Assembly (NCBI GenBank): GCA_050179755.1
Contig: JBFXEV010000001.1
Span: 143,881 to 207,880 of the forward strand
From: Candidatus Babeliales bacterium
Lineage (GTDB): Bacteria; Babelota; Babeliae; Babelales; JBFXEV01
Reading direction: 5' to 3'
Length of the DNA stretch: 64,000 nucleotides
Shown here: positions 22,655-59,401 of the stretch, in pieces
Position numbering within the stretch: the stretch's first letter is position 1
Layout: the number at the start of each line of letters is the position of its first letter
The notes under the pieces: generated by a model
Told to the model about the DNA's origin: nothing
The model's input: the letters and a program-made list of their open reading frames with translations, nothing else
Database searches by the model: none
Translations under genes and position numbers: made by a program

Positions 22655-24007
22655 TTACGCTTTACCTTCCAAATGTTTAATAAGGGTCGCAATTATTGGA
22701 TTATTCAAACGATCAGCATTGCCTCCAGAATCAGTAATAATATATTGGGTTTTGCCTTGTTGCTTATTAAGCACGAGCGAAATCCAATGTTCCTCACCCT
22801 GAGGGTAGCCGGGAATTCCTGCCATAAGGCCGACCACAAAACCATGCACAAATGTATCAGCGCGTGCGTACCGATCAGCAATTTCACGAATTTTTTCATT
22901 TTCTCCAAATCCGCGAGGATCATCGAGCAATGGCACATTCTCAATAATGGTAATTCCATCAAAAGTTACTGGCATTGCATAAAGTAACCCGCCCGCCTTT
23001 TGCTCAACGTCTATTATTTGCTGTATTTGGTTTTCTTTAATCCAATCACCGTAATAATCTACTTGATTCATTACATTACTTATATTATACGATAATGCTG
23101 CACTAATCTGGGCAATGCCCTTATACTTTACCGGCTTGTTATCTACCGGAACATGCGTACCAAATTCTATTGTATCTTTCAACCGAGGCAAATACTGCGC
23201 AATAGCTTCATCTGATCTTACATATTCATTAAAATTAAAGTGTTCAAGACCCTCAATATCCCCGGAAATAGTCTGTTTGGAATTCTTAATAGCATCTATA
23301 AGTTCCCTTTTTGTGACAGGCTTTTTATAAAATCTATCATGTTCGGGAAAATCTGATGGCGCTTGCATGGTATTTGCCTGTATCTCAGTCATAATCTTTT
23401 GCATTAAATCTGGGCTAAATTTGTTTGTGAGAACACTTTGATAAAAACCTCGCATTTTTTCGCGAAACCTATCTTGCAACCCTTGATTTAATTGTTGTGC
23501 TGCCCGCGGCAAAGATGGCAGGTTTTCTTTATCTCTTGGATCATACAATAATTGCAATAACCTTTCATCGACTACCCATTTAATGACTCGTCGATACATA
23601 CTTTGCAAAACTAGAACCCGCCAACGCCCCAACGGATTTTGTTTACTAAATAATTCTTGCGCAAGAGAAAGGCTCGTCAAATCGGCTAACGCTGCTTTGC
23701 CAAATATAATTCGAGGAATAAAAATTGCATTTTTGAGAGCCTGATAACCGCAACTTGCTCCACCACCATATTCTGGCCCTGCAAACTGATTAAGAACTGG
23801 CAATTGAACAATTTCTTGACCCCATACAATACTTTTTTGAGGACTATCAAAAAAATGCTGTGCTCGCGCTTGTCCACTAGTTTTTAAGTGTTGCTCAAGG
23901 CTATAAAGTGAGCGTGATAAATTTTGTAATTGTTCAGAAATTTGCGCACAAACGGTGTAAGGCACTATTAAGAATAAACTCAATGTGCTGATAAAAATTA
24001 CTTGCAT
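22655..24007 (-). CDS. Secreted papain-fold (Josephin-like) cysteine protease candidate
   Basis: LNQ..GASCGYQALKN, GDW, HWISLV..YIITDS; paralog of 54905..56230. Confidence 0.65.
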   Translation of the reverse strand: MQVIFISTLSLFLIVPYTVCAQISEQLQNLSRSLYSLEQHLKTSGQARAQHFFDSPQKSIVWGQEIVQLPVLNQFAGPEYGGGASCGYQALKNAIFIPRIIFGKAALADLTSLSLAQELFSKQNPLGRWRVLVLQSMYRRVIKWVVDERLLQLLYDPRDKENLPSLPRAAQQLNQGLQDRFREKMRGFYQSVLTNKFSPDLMQKIMTEIQANTMQAPSDFPEHDRFYKKPVTKRELIDAIKNSKQTISGDIEGLEHFNFNEYVRSDEAIAQYLPRLKDTIEFGTHVPVDNKPVKYKGIAQISAALSYNISNVMNQVDYYGDWIKENQIQQIIDVEQKAGGLLYAMPVTFDGITIIENVPLLDDPRGFGENEKIREIADRYARADTFVHGFVVGLMAGIPGYPQGEEHWISLVLNKQQGKTQYIITDSGGNADRLNNPIIATLIKHLEGKA

Positions 24008-52061: not shown

Positions 52062-52229
52062 AGACACTCCTTTTGAATAACATACCGCTTTATAACTACT
52101 TGTAGTATACCAAATGGGAAAATCAAAGCGCAATGACCCAAAACGCTGCCATAGAGATTTGCCAACAATGAAATTGCGCTTTAAACTCTTAAAGGTGAAA
52201 CTCTCATAGATTTGAAAGGAACATGCCCC

Positions 52230-53435
52230 ATGAAAGATTCTAATCCGCAAGCCTGTTGGTTTAAACTTTCCGTTCTCTTTTTTTTTGCGCTATCTAAACC
52301 ACTACAGGCAAGAACACTTTTGATGATAGAAGGCAATACGGGCGCTGGCAAAACAACACTTTCTCGACTTATTGAACGTGAATTACATGCACATATTATT
52401 GAAGAGCCCATTGAAAAATGGCGCAAAGTTGGTGATACGGGCAACTTGCTCGATCTTCACTTAAATCAACGTAATCGTTGGGGCTACACATTCCAAACAT
52501 ATGCGTGCTCTACATTTATGCAAGCATGTTTAGAAGCAGATCAAACAATAGAACTTCATGTTTCAGATAGATCTGCCTATTCGGGTATATACTGTTTTTC
52601 GCGCATGATGATGGAAGAAGGTTCACTCACTCCGCTTGAATGGTATATTTATAAAGAACGTTTTGAATGGCTTACTGATTTACTCCCATGCAAAGCAGAT
52701 GGTTTTATTTATTTACGCACAACGCCAGCCAATTGCATGGAACGAGCAAATACTCGCCATAGACCAGAAGAGTCGGCATTAACTATGGATTTCTTTGAAC
52801 CGCTTCATCGCTTTCATGAGGAATGGCTTATTGATAAAAAAAATGTTGCCCCAAACTTAAAAGATATACCAGTATTAGTGCTTGATGGCAATCTTGATTT
52901 TAAATGTGATCCTTCAATACAAAAACAATTTATTGAGCAAATAAAAATTTTTATACAAGAAGTTAACACTTATAAACACGCAAACATTACCACACCACCA
53001 GAACAAATACCATTTGGAACAAATATGATAGATCATACCTCTTTTGCTGTACATAATTATGCACAAAGCCTCACGTTTTATGATGCAACGCTTGATTGCC
53101 TTGGTTATGAACGTATATTCACTATAGACATGGAGCACGTTCAAACAGCAGGTTACGGTACTAATGGAAAACCTTCATTTTGGATAAGCCCTATGGGCAA
53201 AGAGAATGAAGAAATTGGCAAAGCGCGCGGCGTGCATGTTGCCTTTTTGGCGCATTCAGTCGAAGAAGTGCAAGATTGGTATGCAAAATGTTTAGAACTG
53301 GGCGGCACTGATAATGGCAAACCAGGACCACGGCCTGAATATCACCCCGGTTATTATGGTGCATTTATTGTTGATCCTAATGGCTGGCGCATTGAAGCAT
53401 GCCTGCATGATTATAATCCCTCAACTAGTCGCTAA
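52230..53435 (+). CDS. Deoxynucleoside kinase fused to a VOC/glyoxalase domain, with N-terminal signal-like peptide
   Basis: IEGNTGAGKTT, EPIEKW, DRS, IYLRTTP; then MIDHTSF..HVAF..GGTDNGKPGPRPEYHPGYYGAFIVDPNGWRIEA. Confidence 0.88.
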   Translation: MKDSNPQACWFKLSVLFFFALSKPLQARTLLMIEGNTGAGKTTLSRLIERELHAHIIEEPIEKWRKVGDTGNLLDLHLNQRNRWGYTFQTYACSTFMQACLEADQTIELHVSDRSAYSGIYCFSRMMMEEGSLTPLEWYIYKERFEWLTDLLPCKADGFIYLRTTPANCMERANTRHRPEESALTMDFFEPLHRFHEEWLIDKKNVAPNLKDIPVLVLDGNLDFKCDPSIQKQFIEQIKIFIQEVNTYKHANITTPPEQIPFGTNMIDHTSFAVHNYAQSLTFYDATLDCLGYERIFTIDMEHVQTAGYGTNGKPSFWISPMGKENEEIGKARGVHVAFLAHSVEEVQDWYAKCLELGGTDNGKPGPRPEYHPGYYGAFIVDPNGWRIEACLHDYNPSTSR

Positions 53436-53723: not shown

Positions 53724-54257
53724 ATGAAACAAAAACTCCTTATACTGATCGCATCAACTGTTATGACACTTTCATCAGTTAATGCTGAACCTATTCTTAA
53801 TCCACAAAGAAAAGCTGAAGTAACAGAAGTATTTCAAAACCTCAATACGAATGCTCCAGATGAAGCAAAACAATATTATAAGCTTTGGTATACTAATTTT
53901 CTGACTATGTCAGATCTTTACATCCAATATGCAGATTTAGTAATACAAGATCCTGAGCAAGCAAATAATGAATTGAAAATTAAGTTATTTAACGACATGG
54001 CATCAATTTCACTAAATTTCCAATCTAAAATCCTAGAAATATGCTTGGAGGATGGAAAACGCAACCGCGTTGAGCATTTTGATAAATCTACTAAAGGTAG
54101 ACGTTTACATGAAATTACGGGTTGTTTAGATTACGTATTGGAAAGCCAATTAGCAACAATATGTGATAAGAATTGTCCTCTCCGTTTAGAAGAAAGACGT
54201 GCTGCCGTAATTGAATTAAAGAATCACATGCTAAGCCTTAAAAACTTAGTAGAATAG
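53724..54257 (+). CDS. Secreted helical hypothetical protein
   Basis: Signal peptide VNA-E. Confidence 0.75.
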   Translation: MKQKLLILIASTVMTLSSVNAEPILNPQRKAEVTEVFQNLNTNAPDEAKQYYKLWYTNFLTMSDLYIQYADLVIQDPEQANNELKIKLFNDMASISLNFQSKILEICLEDGKRNRVEHFDKSTKGRRLHEITGCLDYVLESQLATICDKNCPLRLEERRAAVIELKNHMLSLKNLVE

Positions 54258-54296
54258 TTCCTAATTTATACAACTCATTTATTTTTAAAAAATTGT

Positions 54297-54327
54297 AAGG
54301 GCAGGGAATAAATCACCTGCCCTTTTT
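54297..54327 (+). terminator. Intrinsic terminator between convergent genes
   Basis: AAGGGCAGG / CCTGCCCTTTTT. Confidence 0.7.
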
Positions 54328-54377: not shown

Positions 54378-54893
54378 TTAATTCATGGTAAGAGCTTGTT
54401 TTAGTTCGCGCTTAAACTTATATTGGCCATTATCAAAAACCTCTAGTGAGGCTTGTTCACCCTTTCTAAGATTCACTGGAGCTTGATACCATCCACTGTT
54501 TATATGACGCCACTTAAAAGTTTGAATGCCAGAATGCTCTACGGTAAAAGTAACTGATTGGGGATCCCAATACGATTGATACGGCGCAATAGACGTTTTT
54601 GTCTTAGCATTTTTGCTATTTACCGTATCTGGATCTGTATAACTTTCCAATACCATACAGCGGGCCATATTGTATACCTTAAGTGAAGATTTAGACGCTT
54701 TGTCAAGCCAATACACCGCTGCAACAAAGCTGGCACAAAACGCAATAGTAACTAGCACCGATTCATCATCTTTTGCCATGTTCCATGCATAATCAAGTAT
54801 GCCTTGACCACGAGCATGAGACTCCATGCTTTTAGCTGGCAATGCAATGCTTGTTAAAAACACTATCATGCTAAGTTTTTTAATCATCTTCAT
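54378..54893 (-). CDS. Secreted hypothetical protein, shared-leader array member 4
   Basis: AKS-MES leader, then amphipathic and TM segments. Confidence 0.75.
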   Translation of the reverse strand: MKMIKKLSMIVFLTSIALPAKSMESHARGQGILDYAWNMAKDDESVLVTIAFCASFVAAVYWLDKASKSSLKVYNMARCMVLESYTDPDTVNSKNAKTKTSIAPYQSYWDPQSVTFTVEHSGIQTFKWRHINSGWYQAPVNLRKGEQASLEVFDNGQYKFKRELKQALTMN

Positions 54894-54904
54894 AAGCGTT
54901 CCTT

Positions 54905-56230
54905 TTACTTAATTTTAATACTAGTAAGATGCTTAATCAATGTCCAAATAATGCCATCTTTAATGCGAGAAGCATTAGCTCCAGAATCGGCAACACTATA
55001 TTCAATAATGCCATGATGCTTATGCACCACAAGCGTGATCCAATGCCGGCTTCCAGAAACCGATCCGGGCTTGCCGCTCATAAGACCAACCACAAAAGCG
55101 TGTATAAAATCATCTACTTTTGCAAGACGCTCAGCTATCTCGATAATTTCTTTATATTCTCCTTCACCTTGATTCAAGAGCGGCACGTTATCAATAATAG
55201 TTATGCCATCAAAATGAACTGGTAAATCTGCAAGCAATCCACCAACTTGCTGTTCATGCTTAAGTAAAAGGCCAATTTCATTTTCATTGACCCAATCACC
55301 TTGTGCATCAAACTTGTTATCAGGATGTGCTGCATTATACTGTTGAAGCGCTTCAGCTTTTGAAATTTCAAATATATGTTCAGCATTTATTGTATTTTCG
55401 GGCACATATAATGCAAGCGCCTCATCACTTTTTGCATAGGCCACAAAATCAAAATTCTCGAGCCCTTCAATATCACCTTTCATAATTCGCTGAGACTTTT
55501 TGACTGCGTCAATAAACAGAGCACGCGTGATAGTAATTTTTGTGCTCGCTTCTAAAGGTTGGCCCTCAAGTGCAGAGAATAATGCTGCCACTAATTGCGG
55601 GCTTAGCTCAGTTGCTAGCACGCCTTGGTAAAAGCCACGAATTTTTGTTTTAAAACGGTCTTGTAATTTCTGATCAAGATGTTGCGCCTCAAGTGGAACT
55701 TCTACATGCTGCACGTCATTATAAGAAATTAACAATGCATACAATTTTTGATCAATATGCCATTTGATCGCACGGCGATACGTATTTTCTAGCACTAATT
55801 TACGCCAACCGCCTTTAGGGTCTTTTTTATTAAATAACTGCTGTACAATAGAAAGATCAGTAAGCTGCGGTTGCCCTGCTTTGCCAGACAGCATGCGGCA
55901 TATATAGATAGCATTTTTTAAAGATTGATAACCACAACTTGCATCGCCACCATGATCAGCAGATCCATATTGATTAAGTACGTGCAATTGCTTAATAGTG
56001 GGCCCCCAAATGGAACCGTACACTGCACGATTAGTGCGCATTTGCTTGGCCGCATACACACCTGCTCCTGCAAGTGCGCCTACTGCAAGCAATGCACCAG
56101 AATGTTCTTTTGCAAAGTTTAATGCGCGATCAAAATAATTCTGATCGCCATCCCCTGAATCCATAGCATGAGCTGGGAATGCTATGCACCATAGAGATAT
56201 AAACAAGATAATGTGTTTAACTATATTCAT
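54905..56230 (-). CDS. Papain-fold (Josephin-like) cysteine protease candidate, array member 3
   Basis: AHA-MDS leader; LNQ..DASCGYQSLKN, GDW, HWITLV..YSVADS; paralog of 22655..24007. Confidence 0.65.
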   Translation of the reverse strand: MNIVKHIILFISLWCIAFPAHAMDSGDGDQNYFDRALNFAKEHSGALLAVGALAGAGVYAAKQMRTNRAVYGSIWGPTIKQLHVLNQYGSADHGGDASCGYQSLKNAIYICRMLSGKAGQPQLTDLSIVQQLFNKKDPKGGWRKLVLENTYRRAIKWHIDQKLYALLISYNDVQHVEVPLEAQHLDQKLQDRFKTKIRGFYQGVLATELSPQLVAALFSALEGQPLEASTKITITRALFIDAVKKSQRIMKGDIEGLENFDFVAYAKSDEALALYVPENTINAEHIFEISKAEALQQYNAAHPDNKFDAQGDWVNENEIGLLLKHEQQVGGLLADLPVHFDGITIIDNVPLLNQGEGEYKEIIEIAERLAKVDDFIHAFVVGLMSGKPGSVSGSRHWITLVVHKHHGIIEYSVADSGANASRIKDGIIWTLIKHLTSIKIK

Positions 56231-57315
56231 TTTCGTACCTCTGTCTCATCATCTTCTAACTCATCACAGAAAGCATCTAGCTCTGCATCGCTTAACTTGC
56301 AAATTGCTTTAATAACATTACGCGTAATTACGGGGCGATACTGCTCAATTTTTTTAGGATCAACCAGATCGCGTATTTCATCTTTTGCTTGAATTTGTAT
56401 TTTACGATCTTGCAATAACGCATCTATGCTGCTCAATCGAGCATCTATTACCTTTTGAATCTCTTGCTGTAGTGACTGCATTGCGTTTGTATCTTCTTGT
56501 GCTACTTCAAGTAAATTTGCGCAAACTACTTTGGTCATCTTAAAATGATTAAGTGAACAAAACAAGGACTGTTCAAGCATGCATTGAACTGCCTGCGCAT
56601 TACCCTTTTTTACTGCTACATACAATGCTGTTTGGCCACTTGAATTCGTTAGATCAATTCGAGCGCCCCGCTCTAGAAGTTGGGGCAGCAATGCACTATG
56701 CCCTTCTTCCAAAAGCATATGTATCGCTGTATCACCATCATTAGTTTGCGCATTGAGGTCTACATGTGCTTTGCAAAACAACTGCACCACGTCGGCAGCA
56801 CCAGTTCGCGCTGCCCAGTGCAACGGCGTGCAACCATCTGCATCTTTTACATACTGCCTTTGTACATTTTCAAAAATAATTTTTGCTAAGTTTGCACGAT
56901 TAAAAAGAGCTGCAAAATGCAATTGCGTAAACCCATGAAAATCCTCGGGTTGCAAATGTGCGCAATCGGCAAGAATAAATGTATCAATTTTTGCATCATC
57001 TTCCACATAAGAACTTGCAAGATCAGACTCTTTTATAAGAGCTACCAGTTCACTTTTAACGTAGTCTACGGTAAGTAATTTTTTGCTCTCTAAAGCTTGT
57101 GTAACTCGCGATTGTCTTTGAGCATTGCGCTCATGCACTGCTACCTGTGGAGTATGTTTTATTGATGGCTTAAACACAGAACTAACAGCCCTGCTAATCC
57201 TCATTTTTAAGCGACCAAATAAACCCTTATCACCGTTGCCTGAATCCATAGCGCGGGCAGGGAAAACAATACAAAATAAGAATAAAATAAGGGTGATTTT
57301 CTTAAAAATATTCAT
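56227..57315 (-). CDS. Ankyrin repeat protein, array member 2
   Basis: ARA-MDS leader; GFTQLHFAA, GCTPLHWAA, GDTAIH, GQTALYVA. Confidence 0.9.
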   Translation of the reverse strand: MNIFKKITLILFLFCIVFPARAMDSGNGDKGLFGRLKMRISRAVSSVFKPSIKHTPQVAVHERNAQRQSRVTQALESKKLLTVDYVKSELVALIKESDLASSYVEDDAKIDTFILADCAHLQPEDFHGFTQLHFAALFNRANLAKIIFENVQRQYVKDADGCTPLHWAARTGAADVVQLFCKAHVDLNAQTNDGDTAIHMLLEEGHSALLPQLLERGARIDLTNSSGQTALYVAVKKGNAQAVQCMLEQSLFCSLNHFKMTKVVCANLLEVAQEDTNAMQSLQQEIQKVIDARLSSIDALLQDRKIQIQAKDEIRDLVDPKKIEQYRPVITRNVIKAICKLSDAELDAFCDELEDDETEVRK

Positions 57316-57334
57316 TTTTGAAACGCCCTTATCA

Positions 57335-58399
57335 CTAATTATTGCTGTTATTAATTGACGATATTGGTTCTATACCCATTAATGCTGCTCGCACATTTTG
57401 CTCAACAGCTTCGCGGTAAAGCTCATCAACATTCTCCGCTTTCATAAAATCAAATGTTCGCGCAACGCCAGGAATTCCATGAACATGCCTCCAAAATGCT
57501 GCCCCTAGATCAAATTCAATATCCGGATTTTCAGTAAGAAATTGTCTTAGCATATTAAGTCTATAATCAACAATAACGGGAACCAACTTGGCCAATACTC
57601 TTGGCCTTGTAGCAACAGGAATATTTACGCATAATTCCTGAAACCATTCAAATGGGCACATTGCCACCAATTGCTCTAATGATGATTCACTCTGAACGTA
57701 TGCTAATTGACACACATTTGAAATATCTTCTGGCAAGAATGAAAGAATTTTGCATATAACGTTATCTGGCAAGTCAATTATTTTTAATACTTGGTATGCT
57801 GCATCAAATCGAGCCCCAGCCTCCAATGAACCATTGCTTGCGGGAGTAAAAGATGCGTTTTCTAATAAAACTTTAATTAGTTGGCAGTGCTTGTCAGTTG
57901 GAGGTGGCAAAACAATGTAGATCATACTCTCAATATTTGATCTATTAATTTTATACCCGCAATTAAAAAAGAAATCCATTACCTTAACATCTCTCTTTTC
58001 TAGTGCCCGCACAAGAGCCCATTGAGCTTCTCTAGAATCAATGTCAATCTCACCATCTCTCATAATTTGTTTGGCAAGATCAAAATTGTGTACTTTTAAT
58101 GCATTGGCAAAAAGCTCACCCCATTGCCGCCGGTGCAACTCTTGTTGTGCTCGCATGCGATCGAACTCCCCACCACGTCGCTCTTGTTCAAGCCTTTGTT
58201 GACGGTTCTGATACCAGTCATAGCATACAATGGCTAACCCCAATGCACCCGTAACACTAGCTATTATTACGGGATGTTCTTTTGCGATATTCCATATACG
58301 GCCAAAAAAGCCTTGATTATTATCTTGCTCCATGCCGAAGGCAGGTTGAGCAACACACATTACAGATAAAATAAGGGTTATTTTCTTGAAAATATTCAT
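57335..58399 (-). CDS. Degenerate ankyrin protein with F-box-like motif, array member 1
   Basis: AFG-MEQ leader plus TM; ankyrin-like helices; DLPDNVICKILSFLP. Confidence 0.7.
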   Translation of the reverse strand: MNIFKKITLILSVMCVAQPAFGMEQDNNQGFFGRIWNIAKEHPVIIASVTGALGLAIVCYDWYQNRQQRLEQERRGGEFDRMRAQQELHRRQWGELFANALKVHNFDLAKQIMRDGEIDIDSREAQWALVRALEKRDVKVMDFFFNCGYKINRSNIESMIYIVLPPPTDKHCQLIKVLLENASFTPASNGSLEAGARFDAAYQVLKIIDLPDNVICKILSFLPEDISNVCQLAYVQSESSLEQLVAMCPFEWFQELCVNIPVATRPRVLAKLVPVIVDYRLNMLRQFLTENPDIEFDLGAAFWRHVHGIPGVARTFDFMKAENVDELYREAVEQNVRAALMGIEPISSINNSNN

Positions 58400-58435
58400 T
58401 TTAAACCTCCAGGTTCTTTTAGATTATTATTTCTA

Positions 58436-58463
58436 ATTGTATATATTTATATAAAAAAGTCAA
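58436..58463 (-). promoter_or_regulatory. Putative sigma70 promoter for the four-gene array
   Basis: TTGACT-16bp-TACAAT; GGAGG SD follows. Confidence 0.5.
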
Positions 58464-58597: not shown

Positions 58598-59401
58598 TTA
58601 CCCTTCAATCGATTTAGCTATATTCTGCAATTGTTCAGAGCGCTCACAAAGATACTCCATATCTTGCCAATAAGGCAATGGGCCTACAAATGGAGTAAAA
58701 TCCAATTCTTGCAAAGCACACAATAAAGCCACATTAGTTACCCGTGTATGCAAGAATATTCTAGAGACTGAAAACGGGAGCTTAAAAATAGCGCTCAAAA
58801 GCAGTTTATCAATGCCGCGCTCATGTGCACCCTGCTCAACACCAAACATGGCTACCTTTACCGTTCCTGATTCAAAAAGAGGCTGCACCAAAAATTGAAT
58901 GATGCCCAACGTTTGGCCAGTATCAGCATCTTTGGCTGTTACAAACCATTGCCTCTCATCAGGAGCAAGATACTTTGCAAAATCAGTTTCAGAAAAAAAC
59001 TGTACTAATTGTGCATGCAATGTCTTTTCAACCTGTTCCCAATTCACGTGCTCTACACCATCTTTAAAAAATGATACCAGCGGCTTTAAAAACATTTCTG
59101 ATTCTACTGCCTCAGGATGTTTACGAGCAAACTCCAGCTCCATTGTTGCATACGTTTGCGCAAAAATTTGACTTGCTTGCCTAAATACATCATTTAACCG
59201 TTTAGTTGTTACATCCACTTCTTCCCAAACAAGTTGTATCGGCGCTCCAAAATTATCTTTTGCTTTTAATATTCCATAACTCATTGTTTTAATACTTTCA
59301 AGATTATGCTTAGTTATTGGCATACTCCACGAATTTGCCATAACAAATAATATGCTGAGGGTAGTAACTACCCCCAAAATATTACGTTGAACATACTGCA
59401 T
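58598..59401 (-). CDS. Signal-peptide protein with C-terminal GNAT-like domain
   Basis: SWS-M leader; FGVEQGAHERGIDKLLL and LHTRVTN resemble GNAT motifs A and B (degenerate). Confidence 0.65.
   Translation of the reverse strand: MQYVQRNILGVVTTLSILFVMANSWSMPITKHNLESIKTMSYGILKAKDNFGAPIQLVWEEVDVTTKRLNDVFRQASQIFAQTYATMELEFARKHPEAVESEMFLKPLVSFFKDGVEHVNWEQVEKTLHAQLVQFFSETDFAKYLAPDERQWFVTAKDADTGQTLGIIQFLVQPLFESGTVKVAMFGVEQGAHERGIDKLLLSAIFKLPFSVSRIFLHTRVTNVALLCALQELDFTPFVGPLPYWQDMEYLCERSEQLQNIAKSIEG

Follow-up and report, generated by a model that had tools for sequence, protein, structure and literature searches.

Why should four tightly packed genes that encode different proteins begin almost alike? 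The question is raised by a locus of a Candidatus Babeliales bacterium (assembly GCA_050179755.1, contig JBFXEV010000001.1), studied within a window of 64,000 nucleotides (nt), the whole stretch of DNA that was analysed; coordinates refer to this window unless given as genome positions. Genes A (354 amino acids, aa; 57335..58399), B (362 aa; 56227..57315), C (441 aa; 54905..56230) and D (171 aa; 54378..54893) are all open reading frames (ORFs) of the minus strand, with A-B, B-C and C-D gaps of 19, -4 (an ATGA overlap) and 11 nt, and would be co-transcribed as an operon. The genome, a single contig of 1.525 Mb with 1,389 ORFs (labelled G000), is compared here with a sister genome of the same genus (G121). 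For a housekeeping gene near the locus, the best matches that carry a name are from Candidatus Babeliales/Dependentiae. The answer favoured, with a probability of roughly 0.58, is that a cassette of promoter, ribosome-binding site (RBS) and signal peptide, joined by an optional block that probably serves as an anchor, has been reused on unrelated genes. An earlier reading from the letters alone (the sequence-only reading) had proposed a conserved N-terminal module with swapped payloads; the tight packing and the N-termini that it quoted are correct.

The likeness of the four N-termini stands out within the genome. Signal-peptide-like ORFs were called with a crude detector of our own, which accepts 670 of the 1,389, and cleavage was inferred from the pattern P-x-x-[AG] before M. 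When the first 45 residues of these 670 are compared, the six pairs within A-D rank from 14th to 80th among 224,115 pairs, and the DNA of their signal peptides is 54-75% identical, where the background averages 34.5% and has its 99.9th percentile at 54.5%. All four carry a 22-residue signal peptide that ends in P-x-x-[AGS] and is followed by Met. The suspicion that the similarity is limited to generic signal-peptide composition was checked and is not borne out; as sole cause, such composition is ruled out by the pair ranks, the DNA identity and the promoter copies described below.

In A, the Sec-type signal peptide (block 1; residues 1-22, 58334..58399, minus strand, predicted cleavage before Met23) is followed by block 2 (residues 23-62, 58214..58333, minus strand). 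In A, C and D the latter consists of an acidic linker, an amphipathic helix, a Gly/Ala-rich hydrophobic helix and then aromatic and basic residues, so three of the four genes do continue into a hydrophobic helix, as had been claimed. The full leader covers residues 1-61 of C and, in more diverged form, residues 1-63 of D; B has about 14 mature residues in common with it and lacks the hydrophobic helix. In leave-one-out searches of the 1,389 ORFs with a post-signal profile, C (E 2.5e-5) and A (E 0.0014) rank top, and D (E 0.55) and B (E 1.1) rank behind chance matches; the membership of D is backed by the sequences of its relatives. A full block 2 occurs on only three of the approximately 620 signal-peptide-like, non-polytopic ORFs of the genome. 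The N-terminal module is homologous in the sense that signal-peptide similarity in DNA and protein lies far above background and that, in A and C, it extends past the signal.

The copied unit is bigger than the sequence-only reading saw and includes the promoter. This sigma70-type element (58423..58463, minus strand, 41 nt: TTGACT, a spacer of 16, TACAAT and 13 nt more) forms the 5' end of the cassette. Allowing up to 12 mismatches, three copies are found in the 1.525 Mb, and 12 shuffled queries find no copy with 11 or fewer mismatches; a whole-genome pattern search returns three copies in G000 and five in G121, and none with a reversed control. All eight precede genes of the same signal-peptide family, 23-33 nt upstream. 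By eye, DNA similarity runs through the RBS and the signal codons to the +1 ATG in every copy, then degrades right past that ATG in four, and extends through block 2 in the other four. Judged by these comparisons, the DNA homology of block 1 spans everything from the -35 box through the +1 ATG. No insertion-sequence (IS) end was seen at the cassette. The promoter ahead of the array is supported by G121, where both hexamers and their spacing are kept, but not by the scan, in which the hexamers (58463-58436) are one of 24 consensus matches with 21 expected.

The clearest swap lies at genome positions 480707-483310, where the promoter, with three mismatches, precedes a gene (g480707) whose signal peptide belongs to the family (E 2e-7, 7th of 673). 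The mature protein is shared by the paralog of g480707 and by three homologs in G121, whose signal peptides rank 52-225. On these comparisons the cassette replaced the original signal of g480707. In a second G121 array of four genes the signal peptides are 77-87% identical in DNA in pairs, and they are followed by hydrophobic segments of three different kinds and, once, by a basic, acid-free segment with a GNAT domain behind it. Across G121 and G000, block 1 is found with at least four other post-signal segments. Because block 1 occurs with or without block 2 and before varied post-signal segments, the two are separable units, a promoter-RBS-signal cassette of about 130 nt and a second block of 40 residues. 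Leader shuffling, as first proposed, is borne out by the promoter travelling with the signal in eight of eight copies, by the g480707 swap and by the presence of the leader on seven payload types, and a history of copying is very probable. The leader would have arisen on the ankyrin/C-terminal-domain family, been duplicated and then been grafted onto other genes, the Ala-Met codons providing the in-frame junction.

The module is conserved, yet a search across genomes confines it to one genus. Among 261 genomes of the phylum, 30 match the leader at E 0.001, and full-length matches (E <1e-20) come only from G000 (four) and G121 (nine), the best match elsewhere being 3.9e-6. A phylum-wide leader is thereby excluded, and by this measure the full leader is genus-restricted. 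A search of 1.84 billion representatives gave 27 matches, of which 22 were retained as full leaders; P0022 (a repeat protein, likely a chance match), P0024, P0026 and P0028 (signal peptide only) and P0027 (a fragment) were set aside. With P0002, P0029 and P0030 this makes 25 leader proteins, which can be grouped into 16 of the ankyrin/C-terminal-domain family, five of the C and D types (joined solely via the fusion protein P0002) and four singletons, one of them with DUF5092, for seven payload types. In sequence comparisons C, D and the four singletons are non-homologous to the ankyrin/C-terminal-domain family. When genome and metagenome contigs were scanned with patterns for C and for the leader, no relative turned up. 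P0013, with the leader and DUF5092, has Cys motifs that look RING-like by eye and would add a ligase-type payload.

The payloads had been called unrelated. This holds for C and D set against the family of A and B but not within that family; in a relative, the D domain is fused to a C-type protease. Gene A joins the full leader to a genus-specific helical C-terminal domain of about 170 aa (residues 172-343, 57371..57886, minus strand) that is found in two of the 261 genomes, G000 and G121. Gene B has the signal peptide, a truncated block 2 and ankyrin repeats, and its residues 272-341 match a profile of the A-family domain built without B (E 1.6e-7); B therefore carries a remnant of this domain, and A and B are distant paralogs. 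The ankyrin payload expected of B is present (residues 132-248), and such repeats also occur in most relatives of A. For A itself the label ankyrin/F-box fares less well, as neither Pfam nor a custom profile detects ankyrin and the F-box-like stretch (residues 208-231, 57707-57778, minus strand) is sub-threshold at E 0.013. A fold search with the A domain gives a best Z of 5.0 and no family match. Proteins of the A family would serve as adaptors, possibly of an F-box-like kind. A further member of the domain family, with one internal stop, lies in G121 (L204, 795494-798712).

Gene D joins its leader to a small beta-rich domain (residues 69-164) whose model resembles prealbumin-like beta sandwiches (template-modelling score 0.58-0.70), matches that give no family name. 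The domain stands directly behind a bare signal peptide in G000 and G121 and recurs, at 49% identity, at the C-terminus of the C-type protease P0002. This fusion suggests that C and D are functionally linked, with D as a putative accessory to C.

Gene C carries a cysteine protease (residues 74-436), as the sequence-only reading had it. The C-type domain occurs in 39 of the 261 genomes, and an alignment of 33 rows conserves Gln87 (31), Cys99 (32), His396 (32), Trp397 (31) and Asp415 (28); the model reaches a predicted local distance difference test score (pLDDT) of 90. Its motifs identify it as the circularly permuted Ulp1-like domain known from Babela, a predicted deSUMOylase or deubiquitinase. 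The best fold matches are deubiquitinases (Z 6.7-6.2), with BpJOS at Z 6.7 (root-mean-square deviation 4.2, 138 aligned) and VTD at 6.4 (4.4, 149), level with other papain folds. Pfam Josephin is matched by 1 of 24 at E 0.086, Foldseek gives no match at E 0.001, and the top structure-atlas match (0.82) is a lead only. A profile of C compared with the CidB ULP domain gives E 0.0014 at the His motif, the Gln-Cys motif being matched weakly and in reversed order, and CE-clan structures align chiefly to the C-terminal part of C. A His-aromatic motif is reported to be enriched in deubiquitinases and ubiquitin-like proteases and to favour substrates ending in Gly-Gly (PMC7391069). AAA domains are found in two of seven long C relatives scanned (L008, L015), and Pfam gives no AAA match in C or E. 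No report of an activity test of the permuted Ulp1-like domain was found in the literature.

Gene E (450 aa, 22655..24007, minus strand), noticed earlier as a protease paralog with a different N-terminus, is indeed 46% identical to C from C residue 74 on, and differs from it in both the signal peptide and the helix behind the signal. N-termini vary across the protease family, being a bare signal, a signal with an E-type helix, or a non-homologous signal-helix-anchor (L004, L006, L023, L027). In a careful tree of 13 rows (three of the 16 chosen were omitted; a quick tree omitted seven), C, its ortholog, P0002 and E fall in a 100/100 clade; C and E as sisters are rejected in the same tree (p 0.016). 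A second, weak leader type, consisting of a signal peptide and an amphipathic Leu/Asn helix, is found in E and in genes at genome positions 835882, 839955, 840523, 1152901 and 1389154, six genes with non-homologous payloads (leave-one-out E 5e-4).

The G121 locus is syntenic, with two A-type genes, B and C, and with a methyltransferase on the other strand at the place of D. D is absent there and the A-type gene is doubled, and variation at the locus is one of gene gain and loss. The G121 orthologs of B and C are 45% and 59% identical (leader included for C). C and D each carry a leader that most resembles the leader of the gene's own ortholog, so the fusions must be old and vertically inherited and the locus is not hypervariable. 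Three DNA runs, all from one study and each a possible source of this DNA, give no variants. Of the polymorphic effector cassette once suggested, the conserved N-terminal module with variable payloads stands; given the synteny with one sister species, the vertical leaders and the lack of variants in these runs, the word polymorphic is too strong.

The part played by block 2 is a separate matter. Its composition makes membrane targeting plausible, and anchoring on the host side, the host likely being a protist given the order Babeliales, is given somewhat better than even odds on sequence features. The proteins would leave by Sec and then probably by type II secretion. The genome carries two secretins, two T2SSE ATPases and two Omp85; two gspD copies are reported in all TM6 genomes (PMC4776705), and type II secretion is the sole system reported in Babela (PMC4378268). 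Signal cleavage would expose block 2 at the mature N-terminus; its helix, whose hydrophobicity is likely too low for arrest in the bacterial inner membrane, would insert in a vacuole or organelle membrane with the payload in the host cytosol, and C would strip SUMO or ubiquitin at that membrane.

Across 22 block 2 helices, Gly plus Ala averages 34%, versus 16% in 514 polytopic helices of the genome, and the helices are less hydrophobic, with a mean Hessa-scale sum of 3.8 versus a median of 1.1 in the same 514 (position-independent sums). Being Gly/Ala-rich and mostly marginal, these helices likely pass the bacterial translocon and insert host-side. At least two Lys/Arg stand just behind the helix in 19 of the 22 proteins and at least three basic residues in nine; C and D have at least three, A two. 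Criteria reported for mitochondrial outer-membrane signal anchors are a Wimley-White value <0.4 and three or more basic residues behind the helix (PMC4010795). All 22 helices fall below 0.4, but so do 90% of the 514 ordinary helices, and the value is not discriminating. Searches of PDB (best E 0.14) and Pfam gave no homology of block 2 to eukaryotic anchors, and a further search gave 11 matches, all of this lineage.

Besides the manner in which hydrophobicity was summed, several observations weigh against a reused cassette with a host-side anchor. A stop-transfer anchor in the bacterial inner membrane would account equally well for the basic residues behind the helix; the D helix, with a Hessa-scale sum of -0.1, is fully membrane-grade; and B and its G121 ortholog are without the hydrophobic helix, so that the anchor is dispensable for some operon genes. 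Several genes of the signal-peptide family have no promoter copy of their own, and the genus is represented by two genomes only. On the payload side, F-box-like matches lie under the cut-off in 4 of 22 A-family members, the model of the A domain (predicted template-modelling score 0.57) has no F-box structure among the listed fold matches, and the fold Z-scores of C stay below 8. The tree fixes no order inside the clade of C, its ortholog, P0002 and E, and is compatible with either leader, that of C or that of E, as the ancestral one and so with a C/E swap in either direction.

The alternative that survives best, though unlikely, keeps the same cassette history and has block 2 anchor the proteins in the bacterium's own envelope, by inner-membrane stop-transfer or by display on the surface of the outer membrane or of vesicles. 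Type I inner-membrane proteins have a signal peptide, a hydrophobic helix and then basic residues, which is the layout seen here, and the strongly hydrophobic D helix agrees with it. The outer membrane of Babeliales is moreover described as degenerate (PMC4776705), and vesicles are reported in Chromulinavorax (PMC6561590). With type I topology, however, a SUMO/ubiquitin-type protease and ankyrin adaptors would end up on the cytoplasmic side of the bacterium, away from the substrates on which they probably act; members of these payload families are also found behind a bare signal peptide, and most block 2 helices are marginal.

It is also conceivable, and decidedly improbable, that block 2 is a hitch-hiker of tandem ankyrin-gene duplication and 3' replacement, by which new genes acquired promoter and export signal, and that the signal peptide alone matters. 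The paralogy of A and B, the loss of the helix from B, the varied segments behind block 1 and the frequency of tandem duplications in Babela (PMC4378268) are all consistent with this, but the amphipathic pattern, the Gly/Ala-rich helix and the basic tail are kept in 22 otherwise diverged proteins with seven payload types, and the non-homologous signal-helix-anchors of protease relatives in other genera suggest selection for an anchor. That block 2 is instead a recognition or chaperone-binding signal for a second export step, through type II secretion or an unknown translocon, can nearly be set aside, for although it sits at the mature N-terminus and six genes with non-homologous payloads, E included, weakly share another post-signal helix, a block on three ORFs in one genus is too narrow for a general export signal.

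The Met at the junction recurs beyond the cassette. Of 621 non-polytopic signal-peptide-like proteins, 258 (about 40%) have a small residue followed by Met where cleavage is expected, against 43-65 of about 600 in control windows, and this +1 Met is followed by Asp, Glu, Gln or Asn in 159 of the 258 versus 75 of 370 internal sites. A Met-Asp/Glu/Asn/Gln N-terminus is of the NatB-substrate type. In samples of 80 kb the +1 Met is found in 22/35 (G252), 14/26 (G029) and 12/30 (G110), and in 55/76 for G121, a sample biased by regions picked around leader matches; it is rare in G005 (3/26) and G061 (3/40), 80 kb each, and in 50 kb of E. coli (1/14). The pattern is, in these samples, lineage-dependent within Babeliales. 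Behind it the cassette leads to an anchor in A, C and D, and in g480707 and the G121 GNAT gene to segments that are basic, poor in acidic residues and presequence-like. A doubtful extension would have many Babeliales use a bipartite address, in which signal cleavage exposes a Met that starts a eukaryote-style sorting signal (a signal anchor, a presequence-like helix or the NatB-type N-terminus) and Ala-Met is a genome-wide swap site; genome-wide enrichment of presequence-like segments is not significant (24/258 vs 13-17 of 226-257; p 0.09-0.29). If true, bacteria would have their own equivalent of two-step host-targeting leaders, and effector localisation in Dependentiae would become predictable from sequence. 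No description of the leader or the +1 Met was found in the literature, most subscription journals being outside the search. Arg-rich, acid-free segments that resemble mitochondrial presequences also stand behind a +1 Met at L163:1044-1691, L164, L032:7022-13199 and L036:7510-8358.

Additional information can be garnered from the surroundings of the array and from other arrays of the genome. A hairpin (54296..54324; z -3.8, 0/200 shuffles) between D and the convergent gene 53724-54257 is likely a terminator, although absent from the terminator-scan listing. Directly upstream of the array promoter, 58598-59401 encodes a signal-peptide protein with a weak GNAT match (E 0.01) that is absent at the G121 locus. 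As read from its sequence, 52212-53435 fuses a deoxynucleoside-kinase-like N-half to a glyoxalase/VOC-like C-half behind an N-terminal hydrophobic leader; its ortholog, 76% identical, lies beside the array in G121, and more kinase-like paralogs exist. A separate array (L079:2543-4603, genome 980543-982603) adjoins a ribosomal-protein cluster, has its own signal peptide and short Gly/Ala helix, gives no Pfam match and is syntenic in G121 (L039). Genome positions 403832-412712 and 432017-436946 hold tandem arrays of recent origin, in which the N-termini are near-identical and the payloads homologous; in the former, two alternative post-signal segments alternate.

Among known systems, the secretome of Dependentiae is one close setting. 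Signal peptides are reported on 44% of Chromulinavorax proteins (PMC6561590), a share with which the 670 of 1,389 ORFs called here agree, and with up to 44% of proteins Sec-exported in Dependentiae the locus offers a concrete, dated example of how such a secretome is built. Dense signal-peptide ORFans, ankyrins and tandem arrays are common to both; a copied promoter-signal cassette, +1 Met and post-signal modules go unmentioned in the accessible part of that account (PMC6561590). With polymorphic toxin and effector cassettes A-D share a conserved N-terminal module and a variable C-terminal payload but not adjacent immunity genes: none stands beside the payloads, no coding-strand ORF of at least 60 aa lies between A and D, and all four genes have the leader.

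In poxviral ANK/F-box proteins, ankyrin repeats are followed by a C-terminal F-box. These proteins and Legionella AnkB are cited as ankyrin/F-box effectors (PMC13720258), and the A family resembles them in having ankyrin repeats and then a C-terminal helical domain with an F-box-like Leu-Pro start. It differs in that the F-box match is under the cut-off, the domain is about 170 aa long and confined to 2 of 261 genomes, and A is without detectable ankyrin. ChlaDUB1/Cdu1, SnOTU, SnVTD and the Lot enzymes are delivered by type III or IV systems. Anchoring of deubiquitinases at the vacuole is described as a common strategy, with ChlaDUB1/Cdu1, SnOTU, SnVTD and the Legionella Lot enzymes as examples (PMC13720258). 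C is likewise a papain-type cysteine protease that has a putative hydrophobic anchor at its N-terminus and that would remove ubiquitin-type marks near the pathogen; unlike them it has a Sec signal, a permuted fold and an activity that is predicted only.

Babela massiliensis has circularly permuted Ulp1-like (C48) peptidases fused to an AAA ATPase, with activity predicted there too (PMC4378268). C has, by eye, the same motifs, with Gln-Cys before His-Trp/Asp, and a signal peptide; in contrast, C and E are without AAA, C has a predicted membrane anchor, and the domain extends beyond Babela to 39 of 261 genomes, C being an AAA-free and well-modelled member. The mode of assembly itself recalls terminal reassortment of type III effectors (Stavrinides, Ma, Guttman 2006), in which promoter and first codons of a secreted protein are fused to an unrelated gene (PMC3191145, PMC6460904). 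Here too promoter and N-terminal signal move together, in eight of eight copies, onto non-homologous payloads. The Babeliales cassette differs in using a cleavable Sec peptide and a sigma70-type promoter, not a type III signal and hrp box, in a junction at the +1 Met with no IS end seen, and in a second, separable anchor-like block. By analogy, then, the cassette works like terminal reassortment, in a version built on a Sec signal and not on type III secretion.

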